DNA from: Fidelibacterota bacterium
Lineage (GTDB): Bacteria; Fidelibacterota; Marinisomatia; Marinisomatales; TCS56
NCBI GenBank assembly: GCA_043822705.1
Contig: JBDRBK010000130.1
Location: 1 to 29,359, forward strand
DNA: 29,359 bases
Direction of reading: 5' to 3'
In this document: piece by piece, positions 3,860 through 28,123 of the stretch
Position numbering within the stretch: the stretch's first letter is position 1
Layout: each line of letters opens with the position of its first letter
The notes under the pieces: model-generated
Told to the model about the DNA's origin: nothing
The model's input: only the letters and a program-made list of their open reading frames with translations
Database searches by the model: none
Made by a program: the position numbers and the translations under genes

Positions 3860-4390
3860 ATGATACAGTTAAAACCAGATCGGAAAAAAATTCAGCGGGC
3901 CGGCGCAGTTCGTGATGGATATTTTCCCCATGGTGTGAAAAACCCGGGTATCACTGAATTTCCCCTGAAATCGAATTATGACTGGACGGTTACTGATGGT
4001 GTATGGGACCTCTGCTGTTCAGGGGATTTTCATCGGCGCTCCTGCTCCTATGGTATGATTGCGAATTATGGAAAAACAGCCAGATTAGTTGATACGAGTT
4101 TACTCCCGATTCCTACGGTACATCCGAAGGATCCCGGGTTTATTTCACATCATAATATTTCAGGCCCCGGAAAAACCGATGCAGCAGGTAGCAATGAATT
4201 GCCCTACATTTATGCTGTTGATGAAATATGCGGAAAAACGGACATCGAAATACGGTACCAGACGGAACATGCGGAACAGCCGGCTGACAGAACATTGAGT
4301 CGGAACGGAAGATACGGATTATGCAATTCGGTGAGTACCGGGGCCGGAAATGTTATACCAATGAATAAGGATTACACACAGCCAAACTGA
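3860..4390 (+). CDS. Hypothetical ORF (176 aa); may instead or also be a non-coding RNA
   Basis: Open frame lies between the operator array and a strong terminator, but it has no clear RBS, AT-rich codons unlike its neighbours and no recognisable domain. Confidence 0.3.
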   Translation: MIQLKPDRKKIQRAGAVRDGYFPHGVKNPGITEFPLKSNYDWTVTDGVWDLCCSGDFHRRSCSYGMIANYGKTARLVDTSLLPIPTVHPKDPGFISHHNISGPGKTDAAGSNELPYIYAVDEICGKTDIEIRYQTEHAEQPADRTLSRNGRYGLCNSVSTGAGNVIPMNKDYTQPN

Positions 4391-8729: not shown

Positions 8730-9116
8730 ATGAACCTACTGTTGACATTTGGAACGCGCATCGTAATACTGGCGCTGATCGCCTATTCGGTGGCGATATT
8801 TACCGAGCAGCGCCGCCACCTGATCATCGACCGCGTGCTGTGGTTTATAACGATCGGCGTTATCCTGGACATCACCGCCACCGTCTGCATGATTGCCGGC
8901 TCGCCCAACTCACCGTTTACCGTCCATGGTTTTATCGGTTATTCATCCCTGGCGGCGATGCTGATCGACGCCGTTCTGTTATGGAGCTACCGGCGAGTTC
9001 ATGATGCCACCACTATCGTGCCCCGGAAACTGCACCTGTACTCCCGGGCGGCCTATATCTGGTGGGTGCTGGCGTTCATCACCGGTGGTGTCCTGGTAGC
9101 ACTGAAATATAGCTGA
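8730..9116 (+). CDS. Four-TM membrane protein, HsmA/TIGR03987-like
   Basis: AAGGAG RBS; four hydrophobic helices; ALIAYSVAIFTEQ, GVILDITATVCM, HGFIG and LHLYS..W..AFITG resemble the HsmA family as recalled. Confidence 0.7.
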   Translation: MNLLLTFGTRIVILALIAYSVAIFTEQRRHLIIDRVLWFITIGVILDITATVCMIAGSPNSPFTVHGFIGYSSLAAMLIDAVLLWSYRRVHDATTIVPRKLHLYSRAAYIWWVLAFITGGVLVALKYS

Positions 9117-9345
9117 TTCGGTCGATCAGAACCTCCGTGCTTTGCCGCCGCGGCAAAATTATCCAGCGGCTGATTTGTTTGTTTTTGATATCCCCCTGCT
9201 TTATTAAGGAATAAATTGCCGGGCTTGCCAGTGGCCGGATTACAGAGTAACTTACCCGGGTAGCGGGGCAATGCCAGGCGAAAAAGTTGCGGATATCCAT
9301 AAAAATTAAACTGCTGCCGGATCGGAAACGGCGAAACCGGGCTTG

Positions 9346-10416
9346 ATGGATAAAATTCATCTGCTGGTCGTCGAAGACGATATTTGGATGGCGCGCCTGA
9401 TCGGTCACCGGTTGCGGTCGGAAAACTATGCCGTCGAATTTGTCGCTACCGGCCGCAAAGCCCTGACCTGGATTCGCCGCCACCCGGAGTCGATAATCCT
9501 GATCGACTATTTATTGCCCGACCTGACCGCCGCGGAAGTCATCCGCCGGACGCAGGAAGCCCGGATAACGGCGGATTTCGTCATCATGACCAGTCTCGAA
9601 GAAATCGGCATTGCCCTGGAGACAATGCGTTTAGGCATCCACGATTTTATTCTGAAAAACAAGGATTTTGCCATCAACCTGCCGCGGGTGCTGGACAAGG
9701 TACGGCAAAAACTACGGATTCAGGCCGAGCTGGCGGCCAGCACTGAACAATTACGAAAACTCTCCTCGCAACTGCAACTGTCGCAGGAGCAGGAACGGCG
9801 GCGCATCGCCCTGGAAATTCACGATGAGTTGGGCCAGTCGCTGACAGCCATCAAACTGGATTTGTGCTGGTTGCGCGATCAGGCGCCGACCGCGCTGTGG
9901 CCGACGATCAATGGCACAATTGAATTGACCGACCAGACCATCGAGACCGTCCGCCGCCTGTCGACCGAATTGCGGCCGCGGATTCTCGATCATCTGGGAT
10001 TCATCGCCGCGATCGAGTGGTATCTGACGGATTTCCAGAAACGGACGCGGATTGACTGCACTCTGAAGGTGACCGTGGACGAATTCGAGCCGCCGGAAGA
10101 TCAGGCCATCGCCCTGTTCCGGATCGTCCAGGAAGCGCTGACCAATGTCGTCCGGCATGCCCAGGCCAGCCGGGTAAGTGTTGCTGTCCGGCGGAAGGAA
10201 CGGAGCCTGGAGTTGAGCATCACCGATAACGGGGCAGGTATCGCTGCCGGCCGGATCGCAAAGCTCAATTCGCTGGGAATCATCGGCATGCAGGAACGGC
10301 TGCGTCCCTGGGGCGGAAAGGTTGTAATCGACAGTCCGGTCGCCGGTGGAACCAGGGTGCGGGCGCTGCTGCCGCTGACGGCGCCGGCGGAACCGGCCGG
10401 AGAACACCGCCAATGA
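9346..10416 (+). CDS. Receiver + HisKA_3 histidine kinase with no sensor domain
   Basis: N-terminal REC (VEDD, IDYLLPD, MTS, ILK); RRIALEIHDELGQSLT H-box; QEALTNVVRHA, DNGAG and GIIGMQER. Confidence 0.93.
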   Translation: MDKIHLLVVEDDIWMARLIGHRLRSENYAVEFVATGRKALTWIRRHPESIILIDYLLPDLTAAEVIRRTQEARITADFVIMTSLEEIGIALETMRLGIHDFILKNKDFAINLPRVLDKVRQKLRIQAELAASTEQLRKLSSQLQLSQEQERRRIALEIHDELGQSLTAIKLDLCWLRDQAPTALWPTINGTIELTDQTIETVRRLSTELRPRILDHLGFIAAIEWYLTDFQKRTRIDCTLKVTVDEFEPPEDQAIALFRIVQEALTNVVRHAQASRVSVAVRRKERSLELSITDNGAGIAAGRIAKLNSLGIIGMQERLRPWGGKVVIDSPVAGGTRVRALLPLTAPAEPAGEHRQ

Positions 10417-11051
10417 TCGCCGTATATATCGTCGACGACCACGCCCTGATCCGGGAAGGAATCAAGCGGATTGTCCTGAATACGGACGATATGCAAATCG
10501 TGGGGGAAGCCGGCGACGGACAGGAGTTGCTGCGGTCAATTGCCGACGATTCGTTCGGAATCGACGTCCTGTTGCTGGATATTTCATTGCCGGGACGCAA
10601 CGGTATCGATATCCTGAAACAGGTAAAAAGCCTGCGGCCCGCCCTGGCGGTGTTGATGCTCAGCATCATGTCGGAGGAGGAATATGCCCTGCGGGCGTTG
10701 CGGGCCGGCGCGGCCGGCTTCATGCGCAAGGAAAGCACGCCCGATGAACTGATCGACGCGATCAGGAAAATCCACGGTGGCGGGAAATATATCAGTGCGA
10801 CGCTGGCGGAGAAATTGATCGACCTGACCCGGGACGGGGATGTAATAACCCACCACCAGCAATTATCGGATCGCGAATTGCAGGTACTGGGCCAGATCAG
10901 TGCCGGGAAGACCATCTCGGAAATTGCCCGTGACCTGTCACTGAGCGTCAAGACGATCAGCAATCTGCGGTTGCGGCTGTTGAAAAAAATGGGTATGTCC
11001 TCCAATGCCCAGTTGATGCACTATACAATCGAGAATAATCTGAAAATCTGA
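10413..11051 (+). CDS. NarL/UvrY-family response regulator (REC + LuxR HTH)
   Basis: VDDHALIREG, LDISLPG, LSDRELQV and IARDLSLSVKTIS; 4-nt overlap with the upstream kinase. Confidence 0.95.
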   Translation: MIAVYIVDDHALIREGIKRIVLNTDDMQIVGEAGDGQELLRSIADDSFGIDVLLLDISLPGRNGIDILKQVKSLRPALAVLMLSIMSEEEYALRALRAGAAGFMRKESTPDELIDAIRKIHGGGKYISATLAEKLIDLTRDGDVITHHQQLSDRELQVLGQISAGKTISEIARDLSLSVKTISNLRLRLLKKMGMSSNAQLMHYTIENNLKI

Positions 11052-11229: not shown

Positions 11230-11790
11230 ATGAAAACAAAACTGATTCTCACCCAAATTGCCCTGTCAGTACTCTGTGCCCAAAATTTTACCTCGATCAG
11301 CATCAGCGGCAATTCCGGCGGCATCGGATACCGCGCCACTGCCGAGGCTGTCAATCTGGCCGCGGCGACGCCGGAAGTTCTGTCCGAAATCCATGACAAA
11401 TATTTATATGCCAGCCAGTACTCCAAGCGTAACCAGTGGAAGAACAAGCACGAATCGGCCAGTCGCGCTGTCGTTGTTGATATTCTGGTTCCATCCGGAA
11501 CAGTGTGCAAGGTCTATTGCAATAACGGTTTCAGCATCGGCGATTTATCGGTCAACAGTGTCACCGGGGACCGGTTGATTGTCAGCGATGCAAGTGGCAA
11601 TCAAAAAGACATTCTATTGAGCAGTATCGTTAAAATTGAGATCGACGACTCCCGGTCGAACAGCCGTAAAGACGGCGGCCTGATTGCGGCCCTGGGGAAA
11701 ATCATCAGTGGCCGTGACCCGGTGGTTGTGAACCTGGGCTGGTTGTCGCTGACCGAAAAAGCGCAAACGATCCAAAAAGTCTTCTTATAA
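11230..11790 (+). CDS. Hypothetical secreted protein (186 aa)
   Basis: GGAG upstream; Sec-type N-terminus MKTKLILTQIALSVLCA|Q; no recognised domain. Confidence 0.7.
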   Translation: MKTKLILTQIALSVLCAQNFTSISISGNSGGIGYRATAEAVNLAAATPEVLSEIHDKYLYASQYSKRNQWKNKHESASRAVVVDILVPSGTVCKVYCNNGFSIGDLSVNSVTGDRLIVSDASGNQKDILLSSIVKIEIDDSRSNSRKDGGLIAALGKIISGRDPVVVNLGWLSLTEKAQTIQKVFL

Positions 11791-12220: not shown

Positions 12221-15200
12221 ATGAAAAAAGATCGGGAAATCGAGTGCTTGCAAGCACGCATCAGCGAGCTGGAGCAGATTGTTGAAAACTATGACCAGGT
12301 CAAACGAATCGCTGAAGAAGATCTGATTAAAGAACAATGGTTATTCGACAATATTTCCATGGGATTTGCCTACCATCAGATCGTGCTGGATACTGAGCAG
12401 CGGCCGGTGGACTATATTTTTCTACGGGTGAATGATACATTTGAAAAATTGACCGGTCTGAAGAAGGACGAGATTATCGGCCGCAAAGCCACCGAAGTGC
12501 TGCCCGGAATCGAAAACGATCCGGCGGATTGGATCGGGCGCTACGGGCGAGTCGCCCTGACCGGGGAAGTACTCCATTTCGAACAGTATTCAGAACAACT
12601 CCAGAAATTGTATTCGGTAACCGCCTATAGCCCTGCAAACAAGTATTTTGCAGCTATTTTTAACGATATCACGGAAATAAAACAAACAATTGCCAAAGAG
12701 CATTTCCAGAGCACGCTAATTGCCAATATGTTTGATGCCGTTTATATGGTCAGGGCAACCGACGGCATTATTGTATATGCCAATCTGGAATTCGAAAAAC
12801 TGTTTGGTTATTCGAGTAAGGAAATGATCGGACAGCATGTTTCGATCGTAAACGCGCCTGCAGCAAAGGAACCCGCAGAAACAGCCCGCGAAATTATTGA
12901 CATCCTGGCCAGGGAAGGCATCTGGGAAGGTGAAGTTCAAAATATTAATAAAGATGGTACTGTTTTTTGGTGTTTCGCCCGGGTTTCCACTTTCGATCAC
13001 CCCGAATATGGTAAAATATTATTAGCGGTTCATATTGATATCAGCGAACGAAAAAGAATCGAACAAAAACTGCTTGATCATCAGAGATTATTAAATGAAG
13101 TCGAGAAAATAACCTATATCGGCGGCTGGGAAATGGATATGATCACCCGTGAAGCCAATTGGACCAGGGGAACATATGATATTGCCGAGTTAGATTACGG
13201 TGATCCGATTCCAGGGCCGGATGAGCATATTTCCTGGTACCTGCCGGAATATCGACCGTTGATCGCCGAAGCGATGCGCCGGTTAATTGAAGAAGATGTA
13301 CCACTCGAGTTTGAAGCAATACTCAAGACGGCCAAAAACAACTTGAAATGGTGCCGGGCGATCGGCAAGGCGGTCCGGGAAGATGGAAAATGTGTAAAAG
13401 TATATGGCACATTTCAGGATATCACCGAAAGTAAGCTGTCTTCAGACACCTTAAAGATCAGTGAGAAAAAATACCGTGGACTGTTCAACGGTATCCGGGA
13501 TGCCATCCTGGTGGCGAATACCGCGCGGGAAATCATCGAATGCAACCCGGCCCTGACTGCATTGTTCGGCTATACACTGGCCGAAATCAAGGGCAAGCAG
13601 ACCGTATTTCTTTACGCCAGCCAGGAACAATTCATGGCAATGGGACAGGCCATTAAGGAGCACCAGGGTGACGAAGCGCCTTTCCTGTACACTATCGATT
13701 ACCGGAAAAAGAATGGTGAAATCTTTCCCGGTGAGACCGGAGTATATTTTTTAAAGGACGATAACGGTGAAATCACCGGTTTTATCGGCCTGATCCGTGA
13801 TATCTCCGACCGCGTTCGGGCCGAGCAGGCACTGCACGAAAGTGAATACCGATTCCGGACCCTGGTGGAAAGTTCGCCGCTGGGAATTATGCAGCTGGAC
13901 CGGGATTTACATATTATTTATGAGAATGCAGCCATTAAAACATTGTTAGGTGTTCCCAAAGGGGAAGATTCAATGGCTCTGGGGCAGGATTTTCGAACAG
14001 TGAGTAGCGCAATCAAAGCGGATTTGCTGGATGATATCGAGGCGCTCCGGAATGGTCAACAGGTTCGCAAGGAATTCAGTTTCAAATCCCTGTACGGGAA
14101 AGAATCCGAACTCGCTCTGTATGGCGTGCCCCTGCTGCGAGATGACCAGTTTGAAGGGGCGCTGTTGATGGTAGTGGATGTTACTGAACAGCGGCGCAAT
14201 GAGGCCCTGCTCAATGATTCGGTACAGACTCTAGCGGAAAAAAACCAATTCATCGAATCGATTATGGATCTGAGCCCGGATATAATGTATATCTATGATG
14301 TGATAAAGAAGGAAAATGTCTATTCCAACGAAGGGATCCAGAAAGTGCTGGGGTATTCTGTTAAACAAGTGCAGGAAATGGGCAGCAATTTGATTGCGAC
14401 TCTGATGCACCCTGATGATTTCCAGACCTATCTGGAATTGACCTATCCCAAATATGCCGTTGCCAGAGATAATGAATTAATCATTCATCAATTCCGGATG
14501 AAGCATAAGGATGGTAGTTGGTGCTGGCTGGACAGCACAGAAATAATTTTTTTGCGTCAAGATGATGGTACTCCCCGGCAAATTTTCGGTGTAATTCATG
14601 ATATTACAGAGCAAAAGTTAGTCAATGACAAACTGGTGGATGCCCAACAGGAAATCGAGAAGAACATAAGTTTCCTGGACACCGTCATTGATAGCAGTCC
14701 CTTTGCAATGTGGGTTTCAGATTCCAAAGGAGTGATGATCAGGTCGAACAGTACACTTTGTAAATTATTGCAGGTAACCGATGCAGATTTGATTGGGAAA
14801 TATAATGTATTGGAGGATGAAAACCTTATCAAGCAAGGCTTGATGAGTAATGTCCGTGAGGTGTTTGATATGTTGAAACCAACTCGTATAACTCTTTATT
14901 GGGTGGGCACAGATTCGGGCGATGTCGACCTGTCAGAGGCTAAAAAACTATGGGTTGATGCATCAATGTTTCCCATTACCGATGCGAAGGGCAAATTAGC
15001 AAATGTTGTCTGTCAATGGGTTGACATCACCGACCAGAAACTGGCCTTGGAAAAAATCCGGGAGAGTGAAAATCGTTTCCGCAGCCTGTTCCAGAGTATG
15101 AAAGCCGGTGTCGCCGTATATCGAGCCGTGAATAACGGGAAGGAATTTATCTTCGAAGATTTGAATCAAACCGGAGAAAAATTGACCAACGTCAGCCGGG

Positions 15201-15601
15201 ATGACGTAATTGGCAAAAAGGTGCAGGATGTATTCCCCGGTGTCAAGGAAATGGGTTTATTCGAGGTATTCAAAAAAGTCTGGAAAACCGGTAAACCAGT
15301 TGCCCACCCGGTATCCGAATACAAGGATGATCAATTGTCATTCTGGACTGAAAATTATGTTTATAAGTTACCCAGTGGTGACATTGTTGCCATTTTCGAC
15401 GATCAGACCATTATTAAACAAGCTGAAGCGCAACTGCTGCATCATGCCCGTGAACTGGAGCAGAAGGTCAATGAGCGAACCAGCGAACTCCAGCAAAAGA
15501 TCGCCGAACTGGAACGTTTCCAAACCGCTACCATCGACCGCGAACTGCGGATGAAGGAATTACGCGACGAAATTGTCAAGCTGAAGCAAATTAAACAATG
15601 A
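12221..15601 (+). CDS. Cytoplasmic multi-PAS sensor (about 8 PAS domains) with terminal coiled coils and no catalytic output domain
   Basis: Eight PAS/PAC units ending NDITE, IDISE, QDITE, RDISD, VDVTE, HDITE, VDITD and DDQT; ends ELERFQTATIDRELRMKELRDEI; no H-box, HATPase, GGDEF or EAL. Confidence 0.92.
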   Translation: MKKDREIECLQARISELEQIVENYDQVKRIAEEDLIKEQWLFDNISMGFAYHQIVLDTEQRPVDYIFLRVNDTFEKLTGLKKDEIIGRKATEVLPGIENDPADWIGRYGRVALTGEVLHFEQYSEQLQKLYSVTAYSPANKYFAAIFNDITEIKQTIAKEHFQSTLIANMFDAVYMVRATDGIIVYANLEFEKLFGYSSKEMIGQHVSIVNAPAAKEPAETAREIIDILAREGIWEGEVQNINKDGTVFWCFARVSTFDHPEYGKILLAVHIDISERKRIEQKLLDHQRLLNEVEKITYIGGWEMDMITREANWTRGTYDIAELDYGDPIPGPDEHISWYLPEYRPLIAEAMRRLIEEDVPLEFEAILKTAKNNLKWCRAIGKAVREDGKCVKVYGTFQDITESKLSSDTLKISEKKYRGLFNGIRDAILVANTAREIIECNPALTALFGYTLAEIKGKQTVFLYASQEQFMAMGQAIKEHQGDEAPFLYTIDYRKKNGEIFPGETGVYFLKDDNGEITGFIGLIRDISDRVRAEQALHESEYRFRTLVESSPLGIMQLDRDLHIIYENAAIKTLLGVPKGEDSMALGQDFRTVSSAIKADLLDDIEALRNGQQVRKEFSFKSLYGKESELALYGVPLLRDDQFEGALLMVVDVTEQRRNEALLNDSVQTLAEKNQFIESIMDLSPDIMYIYDVIKKENVYSNEGIQKVLGYSVKQVQEMGSNLIATLMHPDDFQTYLELTYPKYAVARDNELIIHQFRMKHKDGSWCWLDSTEIIFLRQDDGTPRQIFGVIHDITEQKLVNDKLVDAQQEIEKNISFLDTVIDSSPFAMWVSDSKGVMIRSNSTLCKLLQVTDADLIGKYNVLEDENLIKQGLMSNVREVFDMLKPTRITLYWVGTDSGDVDLSEAKKLWVDASMFPITDAKGKLANVVCQWVDITDQKLALEKIRESENRFRSLFQSMKAGVAVYRAVNNGKEFIFEDLNQTGEKLTNVSRDDVIGKKVQDVFPGVKEMGLFEVFKKVWKTGKPVAHPVSEYKDDQLSFWTENYVYKLPSGDIVAIFDDQTIIKQAEAQLLHHARELEQKVNERTSELQQKIAELERFQTATIDRELRMKELRDEIVKLKQIKQ

Positions 15602-16848
15602 ACCTGAAAATCATTATTAATAACTGGTATACAATTATCGGCCGCTCCCGGGTCGCCACATTGGCGATCCTGCTGGGTTTGCTTTCGGTATGCAGCGCCT
15701 TCTTAATCGGACTGGTGGCCTATCGAACCACCTTCCGGGCTTCGGAGCAGTCCCATCAGCAGTTTTACCTGAATCAGGCACGCTTGCTGTCCCGGGCCGC
15801 CGGCCAGCTCGCAGCCGACCGGTCTGAAGCAGAAGTGCTGTCGCTGCTCTGGCAACTTTGGCATGGGTCAGGTTCGAAACCAGCGGACGAATACATCTGT
15901 ATTGTCGACAGTGGTTCCGTATTGCTGCTGCATTCGGCCGCGCCCACAACGGTCGGTAATTTTGCCGGTGATAATAAATTACTGGGCGTGACTGGTACCG
16001 GAATATCCTGCCTGTCAGACCTGGCCCGGGTGCCGCGCGACTATGTGGGTGAATATATCTCCAGTTCCGGCGAAAACCAGATTGCCGCTTTCGTTGGCAT
16101 TCCCGGCCGAAACTGGGTGTTAGGCGTCCACCGTTCCCGCACCGCCCTGCAATCACAGATCAGAGCCGATATCAATTATCTTAAAATTGGTTTTATCATC
16201 TTTACCGTACTATTGCTGCCGGTCTCACTGCTGCTGTTGTTCGGACTGATTATGGCATCACAGAAACGGGTCGCACTGCTGGACGCCGAACACCAGGCCA
16301 GTGAAAAACAATTTAAAGTGTATCTGGACAAACTACCGGTCGCCATCGCCATTTCCGATGAGCAGAACCGGGTGGAATTCCTGAACAGTACCTTCACCAC
16401 CGTATTTGGGTACACCAGACGGGATATCCCCACCACCGGTAAATGGTGGGAGTTGGCTTACCCGGATCAGCAGGTCCGGGAACGGGTGATCGCCACCTGG
16501 AACAAGGCCATCAGCGAAACAGCCGGTTCCGCCCGGGATATCGGACCGATCAGCCGGACCATCACCGCTAAAAACGGCGACCTGCTTGATATTGAGGTCA
16601 CCAGCACCCGGATTGGCCAGAAATTTCTGATTGTATTCAATAATATTACCAACCGCAGGCTAATCGAGGTCGAATTGCAACATTTAAACCAGGAACTGGA
16701 GCGGAAAATTTTTCAACGGACCATTGAACTACAGGCCAAAATCGATGAGCTGGAACGTTTTCGGGAAGCCACTGTCGATCGCGAATTGAAGATGGAGCAG
16801 TTGCGCGAACGGATTCGCCGATTTGAGGACGGAACCGGGAATAATTAA
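15598..16848 (+). CDS. Membrane sensor (2 TM, Cache-like extracytoplasmic domain, PAS, coiled coil) with no catalytic output domain
   Basis: Two TM helices flank YICIVDSGSVLLLHS..GEYISSSGENQIAAF..NWVLGV; one PAS domain (FGYTRRDI..NNITN); ends ELERFREATVDRELKM; ATGA overlap with the upstream gene. Confidence 0.88.
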   Translation: MNLKIIINNWYTIIGRSRVATLAILLGLLSVCSAFLIGLVAYRTTFRASEQSHQQFYLNQARLLSRAAGQLAADRSEAEVLSLLWQLWHGSGSKPADEYICIVDSGSVLLLHSAAPTTVGNFAGDNKLLGVTGTGISCLSDLARVPRDYVGEYISSSGENQIAAFVGIPGRNWVLGVHRSRTALQSQIRADINYLKIGFIIFTVLLLPVSLLLLFGLIMASQKRVALLDAEHQASEKQFKVYLDKLPVAIAISDEQNRVEFLNSTFTTVFGYTRRDIPTTGKWWELAYPDQQVRERVIATWNKAISETAGSARDIGPISRTITAKNGDLLDIEVTSTRIGQKFLIVFNNITNRRLIEVELQHLNQELERKIFQRTIELQAKIDELERFREATVDRELKMEQLRERIRRFEDGTGNN

Positions 16849-16849
16849 T

Positions 16850-18526
16850 ATGAATATTGGAATCAGAACGAAACTGTTGTCCGGCTTTCTTGCCATCCTG
16901 TTATTATTCGTTATCACGATAATCCTGGCGCTGAGCAGCATTAATCGCTTATTTGAATATAACCAGATGTTGTATCAACATCCGTTGCAGGTAACTTCCG
17001 CCGCCACGGAAATTCAGGCTTTGGTTGTCTCGATGCATCGCTGGATGAAGGATGTCACTTTGTCGGATAAACCCGAAGAGCGGCAATATTATCTCTCTCA
17101 AGTCGCGGCCGATGAGCAAGCTGTGCTGGAATATTTCGATATCATCGATCAGCGGATACTGGGGCAGGCCGGGCAGGAATTGGCCCGTGAAGTGCGCGCG
17201 GATTTCCAGCAGTGGCAACCGATCCGCGAGTGGGTCATCCGGCTTCTGGAAGAGGGAAAAATCCGCGATGCCCAACGGGTCACCCAGACTGAGGGCAATG
17301 AAATGGTGACATATTTAATCGCCCAGACCGGTCGCCTGCAGGACTACGCCGGGCAAAAAGCCAAAGGTTTCAGCGAAACTACGGCGGATACTGCCCGAAA
17401 ATCGCGGATAGCGATCGTTATGGGTTTGATCATTTACGGAATCTTTGGCACCGGACTGGCCCTCTACCTGGCTTTTTCCATCACCCACCGGCTGGCGGTA
17501 ATCGACCGGGTGGCGATGAAAATGGGGCAGGGCGATTTCAGTGAAAAAGCCGACGTCCGGGGCAACGACGAGCTGGCCCGGCTGGCGCGGAATTTTAATA
17601 AAATGGCCCGGCGACTGGCCGATTATCATCAGGTCCTGGAACAGCAGGTACAGGAACGCACTAAGTCCCTGACCGATGCCAATTTACAGTTACGTGAATT
17701 GCGTGACGGACTTGAGCTCAAGGTGGTCGAGCGGACGGCGGAACTGAATGATAAGATCGCGAAACTGGACCGCAGTCAGCGCGCCATGTTGTATATGGTC
17801 GAAGACCTAAATGAAACCAGTCGCACATTGCGGCAAGCCCAGCAGGAACTGGTGCGCCAGGAAAAGCTGGCGACCCTGGGACAGTTGGCCGGCAGTGTCG
17901 GTCATGAACTGCGCAACCCGCTGGGGGTCATCTCCAACGCTGTCTATTTCCTGAAAACAGTGCTGCCGGGCGGCGACACAAATGTCAGTGAATACCTGGA
18001 AATCATCCGTTCGGAAGTGGCCAATTCGGAACGGATCATTGCCGACCTGCTGGATTTTTCCCGCGCCAAACCGGTGCAGCGCGAGGAAGTCACCGTCGAC
18101 CAACTGGTGCAGACGGCACTGCACCGGAATCCGCCGCCCAAAAAAATAATGCTGGATTTTATCCCGGATTCCGGCCTGCCGGCGGCCTTCGTCGATCTAC
18201 ATCAGATCGGCCAGGTCCTGGAAAATGTGGTTATCAACGCCTACCAGGCGATCGCGGGAGAGGGGACGGTCAGTATCAGCACCAGGGCTGAAAACGGAAT
18301 GGTGGAGATCGTCGTGGCGGACAGCGGCGTGGGAATCCCCGCCGACCAGCTGGAAAAAATCTTCGAACCACTGCACACCACCAAAGCCCGTGGCATCGGG
18401 CTGGGGCTGACGGTCTCGAAAAACCTGCTGGAGAGCAACGGCGGTCAATTCCGGATTACTTCCGAGCCGGGGCGCGGCTCGGTGTTTACTTTAATTTTAC
18501 CAACACTGGAGACTATAAATGGATAA
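16850..18526 (+). CDS. Membrane histidine kinase (four-helix-bundle sensor, HAMP, coiled coil, HisKA, HATPase)
   Basis: MNIGIRTKLLSGF-TM start; HAMP (DELARLARNFNKMA); EKLATLGQLAGSVGHELRNPL; ENVVINAYQA, DSGVGI and GIGLGL; ATG two bases after the upstream stop. Confidence 0.95.
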   Translation: MNIGIRTKLLSGFLAILLLFVITIILALSSINRLFEYNQMLYQHPLQVTSAATEIQALVVSMHRWMKDVTLSDKPEERQYYLSQVAADEQAVLEYFDIIDQRILGQAGQELAREVRADFQQWQPIREWVIRLLEEGKIRDAQRVTQTEGNEMVTYLIAQTGRLQDYAGQKAKGFSETTADTARKSRIAIVMGLIIYGIFGTGLALYLAFSITHRLAVIDRVAMKMGQGDFSEKADVRGNDELARLARNFNKMARRLADYHQVLEQQVQERTKSLTDANLQLRELRDGLELKVVERTAELNDKIAKLDRSQRAMLYMVEDLNETSRTLRQAQQELVRQEKLATLGQLAGSVGHELRNPLGVISNAVYFLKTVLPGGDTNVSEYLEIIRSEVANSERIIADLLDFSRAKPVQREEVTVDQLVQTALHRNPPPKKIMLDFIPDSGLPAAFVDLHQIGQVLENVVINAYQAIAGEGTVSISTRAENGMVEIVVADSGVGIPADQLEKIFEPLHTTKARGIGLGLTVSKNLLESNGGQFRITSEPGRGSVFTLILPTLETING

Positions 18527-19265
18527 ACAACTTAAGGTGTTGATCGTCGACGACGATAAAAGAATGGTTAAAACGCTGGTCGATATCTTCCGGGTTAAAG
18601 GCCTGACGGCAGTCGGCGCCGCTTCCGGCGCGATCGCCCTGGAAACGATTCGGAGCGGCAAATTTGATTGCGTCCTGACTGATATTCGCATGCCGGATAT
18701 GAACGGTGTGGAACTGGCCAAAAAGGTGCACGGCATTACACCGGCATTGCCGGTGGTGCTGATGTCCGCTTTCAGCGATGCGACGCTGATTGAGGAAGGC
18801 CTGACCGACGGCGCCGTCGCCGCTCTCTCCAAACCGCTGGACATCAACCTGATATTGAATCTATTCGCGAGTCTGACCAAAGAAACCAGTATCGTCATCG
18901 TCGATGACGATATCAATTTCAGCAAAACACTGGCAGATATCCTGAATGTCCGCAATTTCAAGGTAGTCGTGGTGCCGGATCCGCATGATGCCCTGGAGTA
19001 CATCGACACCGCAATACAGGTAGTTCTGCTGGATATGAAGCTGAACGCGATCAGCGGCTACGATGTGCTGCTGCAGATTCGCAAAAAATATCCGAACCTG
19101 CCGGTGATCCTGGTGACCGGGCACCGCAAGGAAATGGCCGCTGTCATCGATAGTGCGCTGGATCTGCGGGCTTTTACCTGCCTCTATAAGCCGTTTGCGA
19201 TCGAGGAATTGCTAAATACCCTGGAGCAGATCACGCGCCAGGGATTGAAAAAAATGCTGGGCTGA
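18519..19265 (+). CDS. Dual receiver-domain protein with no output domain
   Basis: Two complete REC domains (VDDD..TDIRMPDMNG..MSA..KP and VDDD..LDMKL..VTG..KP). Confidence 0.93.
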   Translation: MDKQLKVLIVDDDKRMVKTLVDIFRVKGLTAVGAASGAIALETIRSGKFDCVLTDIRMPDMNGVELAKKVHGITPALPVVLMSAFSDATLIEEGLTDGAVAALSKPLDINLILNLFASLTKETSIVIVDDDINFSKTLADILNVRNFKVVVVPDPHDALEYIDTAIQVVLLDMKLNAISGYDVLLQIRKKYPNLPVILVTGHRKEMAAVIDSALDLRAFTCLYKPFAIEELLNTLEQITRQGLKKMLG

Positions 19266-19284: not shown

Positions 19285-22200
19285 ATGGCCAACCACAGAA
19301 TTTTAATTGTTGACGACGATCCCCGAATCAGAAAAACACTGGCCGATATTCTGACGATCAAAGGGTACGACTGTGAGACGGTCAGCGGCAGCCGGGAAGC
19401 GCTGGATTATCTGACCCGGGAAATTCCCGATCTGGCCCTGATCGATCTCAAACTGGAAGACGGTTCGGGCATCGATCTGCTGACCGAGATCAAGGCATTC
19501 GCCCCGGGTGTGGAATGTATTCTGCTGACGGGTTTTGCCTCGCAGGAAACCGCCATCCAGGCCTTGAATCACGGCGCATTCAGCTACCTGCAGAAACCCT
19601 ACGATATCGAGCAACTGCTGCTGGCGATCCGGCGCGCGCTGGAAAAAGCGTTTGCCGAAAAAGCGGTGCTGCAATCGGAAAATGACTATCGCCAGTTGTT
19701 CGAGGCCGCCCACGATGCGATCATCATTTTCCGGCCAGACAATGAAATTGTGCTGAATGTCAATTCCGCTGCCTGTGAACTTTATGGCTATACGCGCGAT
19801 GAATTCATCGGTATGTCCCTGCGGCAGGTATCGACCAACGTCGCCACCGGCGAACGGCGAGTGGCTGAAATCGTCGGCGAAAAAATGCCCTTGTCGTTCG
19901 AAACCAATCATGTGCGCCGGAACGGCGATGAAATTGCGGTGGAAATAACCGCCGTTATGATCGAATTCGGCGGCGACCCGGCAATTCTGAGCGTCACCCG
20001 TGATATTACCGAACGGAAGATCGCGCTGGCGACCCTGCAGGAAAGCGAAGAGCGCTGGCGTTCATTGGCGGAAAGCTCGCCCGATCATATTTTAACCCTA
20101 AACCGGGACCTGGAAATCGTATTCGCCAATTATGCCGCACCGGGCCTGACCGTCGCCGATCTGATCGGGAAAAAACTGTATCAGTTTGTAGACAAATCAC
20201 ACCAGGCCAAGATCAAGGCGCTGCTTAAAAGCGTGATCGAAAAACGTAAAGATGTGCGCTACGAAACCGAGTATATCGCTCCCGACGGCGGGAAGATTTA
20301 TTATGAGACCCATGCCCTGCCGCAAATACTCGGCGACGATGTAGTCGGCTTGACCATGAGCGCCCGTGATATCAGCGAACGCAAACTGGTCGAGCAAACA
20401 ATCGCCGAACGATCACGGGAACTGGCACTGATCAACGAATTGAATGAGGCTGCCAATGGCGGCGCCACAATTAGCGAGCTGATCGACCTGTTCAGCAGCG
20501 GATCCAACCGGCTTTTTCCGAATTACGGTGCCGTGGTTTATCTGGTAAATGCCGGTGGCGACAGCCTGGAGCTGTATAACAGCGGTTTAACCGGGACGTT
20601 GCTGGAAAAAATTGCCGGGCTGCTGGGAACCACGATTCCCAAGGTCAGGATACCGCTGTCCGCCGACAGTATCTTCACCCGCATCCTGGCCGGTGAAAAA
20701 CTGGCGGTATTCGAGGATCCCGCCGATATCAGGCAAATGATCACCGAACATGCCCGGACGGCCGGTCTGTCCCGGCTGGTCGGTAGTGTTTATAAATTGT
20801 TGGGCATCAAGCTGGTAGTCACGATTCTGCTCCGTTCCGGGCAGAAGACGATTGGCCTGCTGATGGTATCGGAAGGACTGGCGGACGAAAGCGATCGCGT
20901 CCGTCTGGAACGGATCGCCAATCAGTTGACCGGTCTGATCCGGCGCAAACAGGCGGAAGAAGGGGTGATCCAATCAGCGCAGGAATGGCAGGCCACCTTT
21001 AACGCCATGAGCGACGCGATCTGGCTGGTTGACATGGATGGAAAAATCGTTCGGCATAATCAGACAACAGCGGATTGGCTGCAGACCGGAACTGCTGCCA
21101 TCGACGGCCGATACTGCTGGGAACTAGTCCATGGCACCAGTGCGCCGATTCCCGAATGCCCGATCCTGAAAATGAAAAAATCACTGCGGCGGGAATCCCG
21201 GGAGCTGCCACTGGGGGAGCGCTGGATCGATATTACCGTGGACCCGATTCTTGATTCGGACCACAAGCTTAGTGGCGCTGTGCATATTATCAAAGATATC
21301 ACGGAACGCAAGACAACAGAAATACTGATCCGGCAGGAGCGCGACCGGGCGCAGATGTACCTCGACGTGGCTGGAGCCCTGTTCATTGGTCTCGACCAGC
21401 GGGGCCGGATCACATTGGCCAACCGCGTCGCCCGGGAAGTACTCGAAATCGGTGAAGCTAACATTATCGGCCGTGACTGGTTTGCCAATTTTTTACCGCA
21501 GCGCCTGCGCCGAATGGTCAAAGCGGTATTTAAGCAGATAATAACCGGTGAAGTAAAAGCGGTTGAATTTTTTGAAAATGAGGTGCTGACCGCCACCGGC
21601 AAGGAAAAGATCATCTACTGGCATAATTCGGAATTGCGGGACGCTGATGGTGCAATCGTCGGTTTGCTCAGCTCCGGCATCGATGTTACCGAGCGCAAGC
21701 GCGCCGAGCTGGAAGTGCTGGAATACAGCCAGCGGCTCAAACGTTTGACGCATTATCTGCGTGATTCGATCGAGCAGGAACGGATGCGCATATCCCGCGA
21801 GATTCACGACGAACTGGGGCAGGCCCTGACGGCGATGAAGATTGATCTGGACCTGATGCGGGAAGACATTCAGGATACGGATAAAGTCCTGAGAAAAATC
21901 GATGGTGTCAGCGATCTGATCAACCACACCCTGACCCAGACCCGTCGAATTTCGGCCGACCTGCGCCCCAGCATCCTGGATGACCTGGGTCTGGTGCCGG
22001 CGCTGGAATGGTACATTGATGATTTTGCGGAGCGCACCGGGATTCGTTGCCGGTTCACTAATTTATTCAAAGTTTCGGAGGTCCCAGCAACGACGGGGAC
22101 GGTGATTTTCCGGGTTCTGGTGGAGGCCATGACCAACGCCGTGCGCCATTCCCGGGCGGATACGATCACGATCCGGTTATGGAATACCAGGAACGAAATA

Positions 22201-22413
22201 AAATTAAAGGTCCATGACAACGGGATCGGCATTTCGGCGACGGCCATGGCGAATAAAAAATCGCTGGGTCTGATCGGCATGCAGGAACGGGTGCAATTTT
22301 ACGGCGGCCGGATAGCCATCAGCGGTCGCCCTGACAAGGGTACCGAAATCCTGATGCAGTTGCCGCTGGAAAGCACGACCGATCCGGAGCGGATTCCGGG
22401 AGGAAAGTCATGA
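19285..22413 (+). CDS. REC-PAS-PAS-GAF-PAS-PAS-HisKA_3-HATPase histidine kinase
   Basis: N-terminal REC; four PAS units (RDITE, RDISE, KDITE, IDVTE); GAF-like segment ending IANQLTGLIRRK; RISREIHDELGQALT, EAMTNAVRHS, DNGIG and GLIGMQER. Confidence 0.95.
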   Translation: MANHRILIVDDDPRIRKTLADILTIKGYDCETVSGSREALDYLTREIPDLALIDLKLEDGSGIDLLTEIKAFAPGVECILLTGFASQETAIQALNHGAFSYLQKPYDIEQLLLAIRRALEKAFAEKAVLQSENDYRQLFEAAHDAIIIFRPDNEIVLNVNSAACELYGYTRDEFIGMSLRQVSTNVATGERRVAEIVGEKMPLSFETNHVRRNGDEIAVEITAVMIEFGGDPAILSVTRDITERKIALATLQESEERWRSLAESSPDHILTLNRDLEIVFANYAAPGLTVADLIGKKLYQFVDKSHQAKIKALLKSVIEKRKDVRYETEYIAPDGGKIYYETHALPQILGDDVVGLTMSARDISERKLVEQTIAERSRELALINELNEAANGGATISELIDLFSSGSNRLFPNYGAVVYLVNAGGDSLELYNSGLTGTLLEKIAGLLGTTIPKVRIPLSADSIFTRILAGEKLAVFEDPADIRQMITEHARTAGLSRLVGSVYKLLGIKLVVTILLRSGQKTIGLLMVSEGLADESDRVRLERIANQLTGLIRRKQAEEGVIQSAQEWQATFNAMSDAIWLVDMDGKIVRHNQTTADWLQTGTAAIDGRYCWELVHGTSAPIPECPILKMKKSLRRESRELPLGERWIDITVDPILDSDHKLSGAVHIIKDITERKTTEILIRQERDRAQMYLDVAGALFIGLDQRGRITLANRVAREVLEIGEANIIGRDWFANFLPQRLRRMVKAVFKQIITGEVKAVEFFENEVLTATGKEKIIYWHNSELRDADGAIVGLLSSGIDVTERKRAELEVLEYSQRLKRLTHYLRDSIEQERMRISREIHDELGQALTAMKIDLDLMREDIQDTDKVLRKIDGVSDLINHTLTQTRRISADLRPSILDDLGLVPALEWYIDDFAERTGIRCRFTNLFKVSEVPATTGTVIFRVLVEAMTNAVRHSRADTITIRLWNTRNEIKLKVHDNGIGISATAMANKKSLGLIGMQERVQFYGGRIAISGRPDKGTEILMQLPLESTTDPERIPGGKS

Positions 22414-23036
22414 ACATCCTGATTTGCGACGATCACCCGATCGTCCGCCAGGGATTGAAAGATATCATTACCCGGATTTCCGGTTTCACCGTGGTGGGTG
22501 AGGTCGGTGACGGCGATGCCGCCCTGCAGTTTATCAGCCGTAACCCGGTGGAGGTCCTGATCCTGGATATTTCGCTGCCGGGCCGCGACGGCATCGAAAT
22601 CCTCAAACAGGTCAAGAGTATTCATCCCGATATCCGTGTGCTGATCCTGAGCATGCATGCCGAGGAACAGTATGCCCAGCGCGCCTTCCGCAACGGCGCC
22701 CACGGCTACATCACCAAGAATAATGTCGTGGCCGAGTTGTCCAAGGCGCTCACCAATATTGTCGCCGGCCGTAAATATATATCTGATCATTTTTCGGCGC
22801 TGCTGCTGGACAGCATCGGTGGCGGCGTCGTCCGGCGCTACAAGAAACTGACCGACCGGGAATACCAGGTGTTTATCCAGATCGCCGCCGGCAAACCGGT
22901 CGGTCAGATCGCCCGGGAGCTCCTCTTGAGCGTGAAAACGGTCAGCACCTATCGCCACCGGGTCCTGGAAAAAATGCAGTTGAAGCAGAATGCCGAGCTG
23001 ACCCGCTATGCGATTGAGAACGGCCTGTTAGATTGA
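22410..23036 (+). CDS. NarL/UvrY-family response regulator (REC + LuxR HTH)
   Basis: CDDHPIVRQG, LDISLPG, LSMH, LTDREYQV and LSVKTVSTYRHRVLEKM; GGAGG RBS; ATGA overlap with the kinase. Confidence 0.96.
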   Translation: MNILICDDHPIVRQGLKDIITRISGFTVVGEVGDGDAALQFISRNPVEVLILDISLPGRDGIEILKQVKSIHPDIRVLILSMHAEEQYAQRAFRNGAHGYITKNNVVAELSKALTNIVAGRKYISDHFSALLLDSIGGGVVRRYKKLTDREYQVFIQIAAGKPVGQIARELLLSVKTVSTYRHRVLEKMQLKQNAELTRYAIENGLLD

Positions 23037-27586: not shown

Positions 27587-28123
27587 TTATCCGGTATTGT
27601 GCCGAGGTCCGGCTGCATGTTGCCGGATAATCATTTCATCGATGGCAGCCGTGATTTTGAGATACAGTGGCTCGATGCTGCGGGTCCGCGAGGCCGACGA
27701 AATGGCATCGATCCTGGTTCGGCTGAATTTATCGCGGGAATCACCGAAGGTCATGATGAATACCAACCGTTCGGCGTCAGTTGTGTGCTCCAGATATTTT
27801 GTAATTCCCGGTTCGATATCATTGCAGGCGATACAGGTTTCAAGGATCAGGATGGCATCGAATTTACTGGTGTCGGTAGACCTCAAATTGGCGATATTGA
27901 TTACTTTGATATTGGCGTATTCTTTATAATTATTGATCACCAGCCGGCGTAATCGATCCTTGAAAGTGGTGGCATCGCTGGCGATCAACAGATTGAACCG
28001 GGCCTGGTCATTGAGATAAACCGCTTCATCCAGCTTCAACGAATTAAGGAAAAATAAAAATGCTGTACATATGACAATTGTGACACTCAGGAGGATTATT
28101 GCCGTTGGTTTTAGAATCTTCAT
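27587..28123 (-). CDS. Membrane-anchored hypothetical protein, flavodoxin-like alpha/beta pattern
   Basis: N-terminal TM helix; alternating strands and helices (LLIAS, IKVINI, FDAILIL, LVFIMT); DAISSAS motif near the C-terminus. Confidence 0.65.
   Translation of the reverse strand: MKILKPTAIILLSVTIVICTAFLFFLNSLKLDEAVYLNDQARFNLLIASDATTFKDRLRRLVINNYKEYANIKVINIANLRSTDTSKFDAILILETCIACNDIEPGITKYLEHTTDAERLVFIMTFGDSRDKFSRTRIDAISSASRTRSIEPLYLKITAAIDEMIIRQHAAGPRHNTG

Follow-up and report, generated by a model that had tools for sequence, protein, structure and literature searches.

A candidate docking-helix pair between output-less sensors and a histidine kinase in a Fidelibacterota genome

The class I sensor histidine kinase is normally a single chain, and the accessory sensors known to us use one-off interfaces. 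In chemoreceptor-CheW-CheA arrays many sensors feed one kinase, an arrangement that needs the hairpins of methyl-accepting chemotaxis proteins (MCPs) as well as CheW. Here we describe a three-gene cluster from a 29,359-nucleotide stretch of DNA of a Fidelibacterota bacterium (contig JBDRBK010000130.1, assembly GCA_043822705.1; the whole stretch is called the window below), where two sensors with no output domain, S1 and S2, end in a short helix, A (the 'plug'), and are followed by a histidine kinase, K, that carries another short helix, B (the 'socket'), in its stalk. We consider it rather probable, on sequence grounds, that A and B are a docking pair through which sensor signals are handed to enzymes in trans. 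An MCP signalling domain, CheW or a class II kinase was not found among the 23 window proteins scanned.

The closest described systems are stand-alone sensors acting in trans on the enzyme encoded beside them, such as H-NOX with HqsK/HahK or with cyclic di-GMP (c-di-GMP) enzymes, NosP, and LuxP-LuxQ (PMC6769237). As in the H-NOX and NosP systems, sensor and enzyme are here separate adjoining genes, and the enzyme partner can be either a kinase lacking a sensor or a c-di-GMP enzyme. There, however, the sensor domain itself binds, whereas here a short tag sits on many unrelated sensors and the stalk of the enzyme bears a matching tag, as one copy, as an array or in a candidate relay; an H-NOX or FIST haem domain was not found in S1 and S2, which hold PAS domains and a Cache fold only. 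In class 1 docking of polyketide synthases (PKSs), two helices at the C-terminus grip a coiled coil, and a four-helix bundle results (PMC9113145). Unlike the class 1 cis-acyltransferase PKS docking domains, A and B have no sequence match to solved structures. The PKS domains lie at junctions of acyl carrier protein and ketosynthase and channel substrate, whereas B, in many cases internal to its chain, would transmit a conformational signal; Pfam detected no PKS domains in S1, S2 and K.

The signalling helix (S-helix), with its ERT signature at positions c, d and e of a coiled coil, joins sensor to output within one chain (PMC1592074). At our locus an ERT-type signature likewise precedes A in both sensors (NERT in S1, FQRT in S2) and B in K (QERT and VERT), and A repeats the arginine at d three heptads further on. 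The stretches ahead of A and B qualify as S-helices; A and B themselves do not, and are distinct motifs that many relatives carry without ERT. Only in K does the S-helix lead to a downstream domain of the same chain, whereas the chains of S1 and S2 end 12–14 residues past the motif.

In RetS-GacS (PMC12148439), as we propose here, control over a kinase comes from another protein, through contact between bundled helices of the cytoplasmic stalk; RetS, however, possesses a complete kinase region and is swapped into the dimerisation and histidine phosphotransfer (DHp) domain, whereas the A proteins have no DHp. The split between CheA3 and CheA4 separates ATP binding from phosphotransfer (PMC3591291), so that there too a kinase function is assembled from separate proteins, but at our locus the cut lies between the sensor and an intact class I kinase, and no adaptor was seen. 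Soluble guanylyl cyclase alpha and beta share a coil of the S-helix family that favours the heteromer (PMC2828450); those subunits are homologous and each has a cyclase, whereas A and B have unrelated cores and the A proteins no output domain. A review of kinase sensing lists accessory proteins, and in the section cited a tag like A or B is not among them (PMC8534201). By analogy, the working principle would be that of stand-alone sensors beside enzymes, joined by something like a PKS docking pair, and the system appears to belong to none of the families compared. A description of the A/B motif pair at its centre was not found in the open-licence literature (subscription journals and supplements lay outside the scope), within which the pair is undescribed.

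Helix A on sensors and helix B on enzymes

Pfam recognised only PAS families in S1 and S2, and the series 4HB_MCP_1-HAMP-HisKA-HATPase_c in K (Table 1). TIGR00229 scored above its cut-off for seven stretches of S1, and PAS-end motifs counted by eye give eight. The periplasmic part of S2, missed by Pfam, has a predicted fold similar to Cache domains (template modelling score 0.79, residues 40–200). K is a class I histidine kinase (PF00512 46.7 bits and PF02518 81.5 bits, both above cut-off) with His352 as the phospho-accepting residue. An earlier note on this DNA had quoted three peptides from these open reading frames (ORFs), which indeed lie there, starting at 15452, 16693 and 17711, and had remarked that the sensors stop without an H-box or ATPase. 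This holds: DHp and ATPase families, intact or degenerate, were not found in S1 and S2 with Pfam and NCBIfam profiles. A reading of S1 and S2 as frameshifted or truncated kinases was rejected, as no frame carries either on into a kinase and their homologues likewise end with the tail.

Helix A, with the consensus F..xT[IV]DREL[RK]M.[EQ]L, closes both sensors. A profile built from 47 A sequences of the same phylum (Fidelibacterota) matched 17,397 clusters at E ≤ 0.001 among 1.84 billion representatives. Among the best 150 of these 17,397 matches, 143 were at least 60 amino acids long; in these, S2 and one further match (145 proteins), A always lay within 40 residues of the C-terminus, and HisKA or HATPase was detected in none by profiles built from the window proteins. 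Across all collected loci, A is terminal in 316 of 322 distinct A ORFs and kinase domains occur in two, so the sensor homologues do not run on into kinases; a continuation of that kind is what the earlier note had named as fatal to its idea. The inputs capped by A include, among 18 proteins scanned, PAS, dCache, GAF, 7TM, TPR, MEDS, V4R, receiver, CheB and other domains, and named records with A come from Patescibacteria, Bacteroidota, Verrucomicrobiota, Chloroflexota, Nitrospirota, Proteobacteria and several archaeal groups.

No Pfam or NCBIfam family was found for A: the 47 sequences gave scattered weak coiled-coil matches, and NCBIfam tail scores were far under the cut-offs. Its Atlas neighbours were unnamed, with scores below 0.9, and no PDB entry was found, the profile drawing generic zipper matches only (best E 0.066). 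A word-based homologue search with the short tail, which is insensitive, returned two proteins. Among less usual bearers, A tails were seen on a Tll0287-like domain (L361:4531-5424), a CheB methylesterase domain (L137:7964-8929) and a TPR protein (L055:5709-7178). At L047:2397-4829, three tandem genes for transmembrane-PAS-A proteins with near-identical tails lie among unrelated neighbours, in a genome (G012) where no B was found.

In K, helix B sits in the stalk between HAMP and HisKA, ahead of the H-box, and the stalk was modelled as a single helix running from the S-helix via B into DHp helix 1 (helix 2–92, pLDDT 93). A fold search with this stalk returned ordinary DHp matches only, and the B profile had no match at E ≤ 1 among PDB sequences. 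A kinase follows B in 181 of 218 B ORFs; eight others are B...A proteins, 25 are cut off and four fall elsewhere. The B-bearing kinases are of the HisKA, HisKA_2 and HisKA_3 types, and B also occurs on HD-GYP phosphodiesterases. Where B directly precedes HisKA, its distance to the phospho-accepting histidine is a multiple of seven in 67 of 73 cases. Two to seven copies of B were found in 75 kinases, with a spacing of 21 residues in 178 of 184 intervals, and 52 of the 53 complete kinases with at least three copies have no PAS, HAMP or receiver domain ahead of them by our own profiles, the exception being an assembly gap. The L154 candidate for a PAS-B-kinase fusion was rejected as a scaffold-gap artefact.

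Several arrangements of B deserve separate mention. Kinases without a sensor, in which three to seven tandem 21-residue B copies make up the N-terminus, were seen at L123:8093-9175, L092, L098, L119 and L304, and in at least one genome with a B-array kinase the B copies outnumber the A genes. Proteins with an internal B and a terminal A but no enzyme occur at L132:9603-12512, L066:1485-4127, L216:5745-7130, L249, L266 and P0128; such B...A proteins are candidate relays that would chain sensors. At L236:2386-6897 and L237:2221-6749, a kinase whose two B helices differ and are separated by a PAS domain follows two sensors of unlike A subtype, possibly with one socket for each sensor. On the long contig of L242 a genuine B-PAS-kinase has no A within 7 kb upstream.

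Co-occurrence, fusion and co-variation of A and B

Within the genome of origin (3.3 Mb), motif A was found in two and motif B in one of 22,782 six-frame ORFs, all within this cluster, although 42 ORFs with HisKA and HATPase are present; the clustering of A and B is therefore not due to chance. The earlier note had suggested looking for co-occurrence and adjacency in other genomes, and the two motifs are indeed found together and adjacent across phyla. Among 151 genomes of the same phylum, 25 have B and 24 of these also have A. Among 161 genomes from the phylum of G176 (Patescibacteria by record), A was found in 21, B in 17 and both in 16; the archaeal phylum of G177 gave five, five and four among 151 genomes, and the phylum of G180 gave 28, 10 and 10 among 171. 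In the four samples pooled, 54 of 57 B-bearing genomes have A, usually just upstream, a count for which the four centre genomes were picked because the pair is present, kin are not independent, and part of the profile seeds come from these samples. In the three B-only genomes the contig ends at the B gene, whose upstream side is missing.

A metagenome search with a B pattern gave 97 matches (80 flanked, 78 confirmed by the profile), and A was found in 52 of the 57 B loci whose upstream flank reached 300 bp or more; three of the five loci without A are short non-kinase frames. In the opposite direction, a DNA pattern for A matched at least 125 stretches, of which 79 were flanked, leaving 76 loci once three duplicates were dropped. 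Among the matches listed, B (profile threshold 12 bits; reversed-sequence maximum 8.6 bits) occurred near A in 56 of the 76 loci (in 52 of the 62 that extend 2 kb or more downstream), and in 54 of the 56 it lay downstream of A. In the same set, the kinase directly after the A gene has B in 43 of 48 cases, against 10 of 47 for other kinases at these loci, and three of the five B-negative kinases have a diverged B by eye.

An HD-GYP family with split and fused forms is the strongest sign that A and B may work in contact, and these forms show that kinases are not the only enzymes with the pair. When a natural A-linker-B protein was used as the query, 81 proteins were obtained, some named Gallionella or Nitrosomonadales, including 28 fused relatives (A-linker-B) and 53 that open with B only; the HD motif is present in 67 of 82 examined members of the split/fused family. 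The split A protein with two transmembrane helices is 56% identical to the fused N-terminus over 114 residues, and in the fusions both motifs are conserved, with a linker that is variable and predicted to be disordered. Among 121 genomes of the G661 family, A was found in 23 and the exact family B pattern at nine places in seven genomes, all nine located 101–335 bp after an A. At 20 A loci inspected in these genomes, A is followed by B-PAS-HD-GYP in 13 (one fused) and by kinases in seven. The split plug-in sensor and kinase envisaged by the earlier note gains from genomics, fusions, co-variation and heptad phase, and the module is wider than the kinases of which that note had spoken.

Among 76 non-redundant A/B pairs, A similarity follows B similarity (r 0.29; partial r 0.28 after removal of the H-box region; shuffle maximum 0.14), with hardly any correlation to the H-box region of that kinase (r 0.05). 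The A subtype of the window goes with AML[YF]M in seven of eight pairs, and the REFRI subtype with its own B type in five of five. In a column analysis of 77 de-replicated pairs the top co-varying pair was A-Met19/B-Asn14 (z 10.5), and A19/B11 was also among the top; column mutual information did not tell parallel from antiparallel orientation. With ERT fixed at c, d and e, the a/d positions of A are Leu5, Phe8, Thr12, Arg15, Met19 and Leu22. Conservation of B amounts to 2.98 bits at e/g, 2.37 at b/c/f and 1.70 at a/d, and its most conserved residues (Ala11, Asn14, Leu16, Asp18) lie outside its own core. The gap-free alignment of sensor tails and kinase, read earlier as complementary acidic and basic helices, stands as far as the common S-helix reaches, and the net charges are indeed opposite (A +1.0, B −1.8); the A and B cores, however, are not detectably homologous (hhalign 3.6%; a separate comparison aligned the S-helix part only). 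Since the conserved residues of B face outward, docking in a groove fits better than in-register pairing of homologous helices.

Proposed mechanism and rival explanations

In the docking reading, the sensors are made as separate proteins ending in S-helix and A, and the enzyme bears B in the dimeric coiled coil leading into its catalytic part. A would bind B, and a twist or slide of the sensor S-helix, driven by the PAS or Cache domains, would pass to the B coiled coil and on to the DHp, switching the kinase; K might then read three inputs, from its own four-helix-bundle (4HB) domain, the membrane sensor S2 and the cytoplasmic sensor S1. Physical binding of A to B, transfer of the signal and its sign are all predictions from sequence features. 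The end of the A-A coil would be unstable, with arginine at d and like charges at g/e, and would splay, and each A helix would lie parallel in a g/e groove of the B dimer, so that two A and two B helices form a four-helix bundle (A2B2) like that of class 1 PKS docking, with Ala11, Asn14, Asp18 and Leu16 of B against Met19 and Arg15/Lys23 of A. That the core face of A occupies this groove, as the outward conserved residues of B and the co-variation of A19 with B14 and B11 would have it, has about even odds by analogy; an in-register, strand-swapped A:B dimer and an antiparallel fit are possible. A parallel orientation is tentatively suggested by alike estimated depths below the membrane (122 Å for S2, 112 Å for K).

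A number of results weigh against docking. The co-variation rests on few subtypes with non-independent kin, and the depth correlation was initially non-significant (rho 0.32, p 0.07, 32 of 51 pairs) and became significant only once a post hoc filter was applied (rho 0.45, 27 loci). Because neighbours of A served to iterate the B profile, the A-to-B counts are partly circular; the un-iterated profile found B at 35 of the 79 loci among the matches listed. Four of five A-only genomes searched again at E ≤ 1 had no B, the fifth having a diverged B by eye, and in one A-only genome that is 97% complete and without B three tandem A sensors lie amid unrelated genes. In the phylum of G180, 18 of the 28 A genomes were without B at E ≤ 0.001, with a low-score B in 10 of 20 loci inspected; a loose pattern recovered B in just three of 17 kinase-side loci missed by the profile, and five of the seven kinase-side loci of the G661 family had none. 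The A-to-B direction is weaker than the B-to-A direction, and loci with A and no B may represent diverged sockets, other partners or true counter-examples. Finally, certain A proteins are 140-residue proteins with two transmembrane helices and no evident ligand site.

Such tiny proteins, found beside soluble B-HD-GYP enzymes, would suit a different role, in which A binds B as a tether or brake, by anchoring, clustering or occupancy, without any conformational signal crossing the joint. A membrane A is combined with a soluble B in 18 of 124 pairs, multi-B arrays would profit from avidity, K already owns a sensor domain, and GacS is inhibited by RetS binding (PMC12148439, section cited). We nevertheless judge this unlikely: most A proteins hold several true sensor domains (PAS, dCache, GAF, MEDS, V4R, 7TM, receiver, CheB), both partners are soluble in 51 of the 124 pairs, A prolongs the S-helix in phase, and the heptad phase from B to the histidine is fixed. 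Somewhat less probable still is that A and B are not in contact at all, being co-inherited in a mobile signalling cassette or sharing a third partner, with A perhaps a mere dimerisation tail. As neighbouring genes, they could owe co-occurrence and subtype matching to shared descent; orphan A genes are found, and in a single-chain model of the natural A-linker-B fusion the two helices, joined by a disordered linker, do not pack with confidence (pTM 0.31). However, the pair is retained while sensors and outputs swap (HisKA, HisKA_2, HisKA_3, HD-GYP), A tracks B rather than the DHp of the same gene, the fusions keep both motifs while the linker drifts, and our own domain maps reveal no third gene common to the loci.

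We give very little credence to the idea that A is left over from, or imitates, the first DHp helix (RELR in place of HELR), the sensors then being truncated kinases or else pseudokinase tails that enter the DHp bundle of the kinase in the manner of RetS. ELE.F and VGRELR do look by eye like ELEAF and VGHELR, and A occupies the site after the S-helix where a DHp would come, but a degenerate H-box is not supported by comparison of the A profile with 200 HisKA H-box windows (1.8% probability) and six HisKA_3 windows (0.6%). The best score of the A profile on H-box windows was 9.1 bits, and HisKA families matched none of the 47 A sequences at E ≤ 0.1. Moreover, A shows high conservation and a terminal position across thousands of clusters, it is also paired with enzymes devoid of a DHp (HD-GYP), and this reading would leave B unexplained. 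Beyond the docking pair itself, the chances seem a little short of even that A/B is a general prokaryotic connector standard, by which any sensor or receiver ending in A could be plugged onto any B enzyme (three kinase classes and HD-GYP), with B...A proteins as relays, 21-residue arrays as multi-socket strips and co-varying subtypes as a specificity code.

The cluster, its surroundings and possible significance

The genes of the cluster abut or overlap, as the earlier note had seen: the S1 and S2 frames are joined by an ATGA overlap, and the ATG of K at 16850 is one base past the S2 stop, the longest K frame opening at a TTG at 16823. Judging from these overlaps, S1, S2 and K are probably co-transcribed; a promoter and terminator scan gave a signal at chance level. 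The GC content at third codon positions (GC3) of S1 is 0.51, against a median of 0.65 for the long ORFs of the genome and under the 10th percentile, and those of S2 and K are ordinary; given its low GC3, S1 may have joined the cluster later. Relatives of the 4HB-HAMP part of K with 37–39% identity (L002, L003 and L005, from genomes of the same family) run on into PAS domains without B, and K looks like a mosaic.

Table 1. Features of the S1-S2-K cluster and the genes that follow it in the window
Feature	Position	Strand	Basis and remarks
S1, soluble eight-PAS sensor, no output domain, S-helix and helix A at end	12221..15601	+	Pfam, TIGR00229, sequence; 1126 aa
S-helix signature NERT of S1, three heptads ahead of the RE of helix A	15452..15490	+	sequence; ERT = c,d,e per PMC1592074 (section cited)
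Helix A ('plug') of S1, invariant RE 15539-15544	15491..15595	+	motif/profile
S2, transmembrane-Cache-fold-transmembrane-PAS sensor, no output domain, S-helix and helix A at end	15598..16848	+	Pfam, fold match; 416 aa
Helix A ('plug') of S2, invariant RE 16780-16785	16732..16836	+	motif/profile
K, histidine kinase: transmembrane-4HB-transmembrane-HAMP-two S-helix signatures-helix B-HisKA-HATPase_c	16850..18526	+	Pfam, sequence; 558 aa
Helix B ('socket') of K, core SQRAMLYMVEDL at 17774-17809	17750..17845	+	profile; helix model
Phospho-accepting His352 of K, within GHELRNPL	17903..17905	+	sequence
Double-receiver protein, overlaps K stop; likely phosphoacceptor of K	18519..19265	+	Pfam, sequence
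Receiver (REC)-PAS-HisKA_3 kinase and LuxR-type regulator, without A or B; likely downstream relay	19285..23036	+	Pfam

Pairs of a REC-HisKA_3 kinase and a LuxR regulator lie on both sides of the cluster (9343-11051 and 19285-23036), followed by single receivers and a hybrid kinase up to 26983. No Pfam match (E ≤ 0.01) was obtained for the window ORFs at 11230-11790, 3860-4390, 8730-9116, 1973-2866 and 27587-28123.

If the docking of A and B is true, the two helices would be a portable tag pair in more than 17,000 clusters, and many PAS/Cache proteins without output and kinases without input, in uncultured bacteria and archaea, would gain a function. Coiled-coil signals could then pass between chains, across a non-covalent joint, and the integration of several inputs on one kinase in small-genome lineages would be explained. 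The pair would also offer a natural 35-residue connector for sensor building, and, should the broader connector standard hold, cells could rewire their inputs by gaining or expressing single genes.

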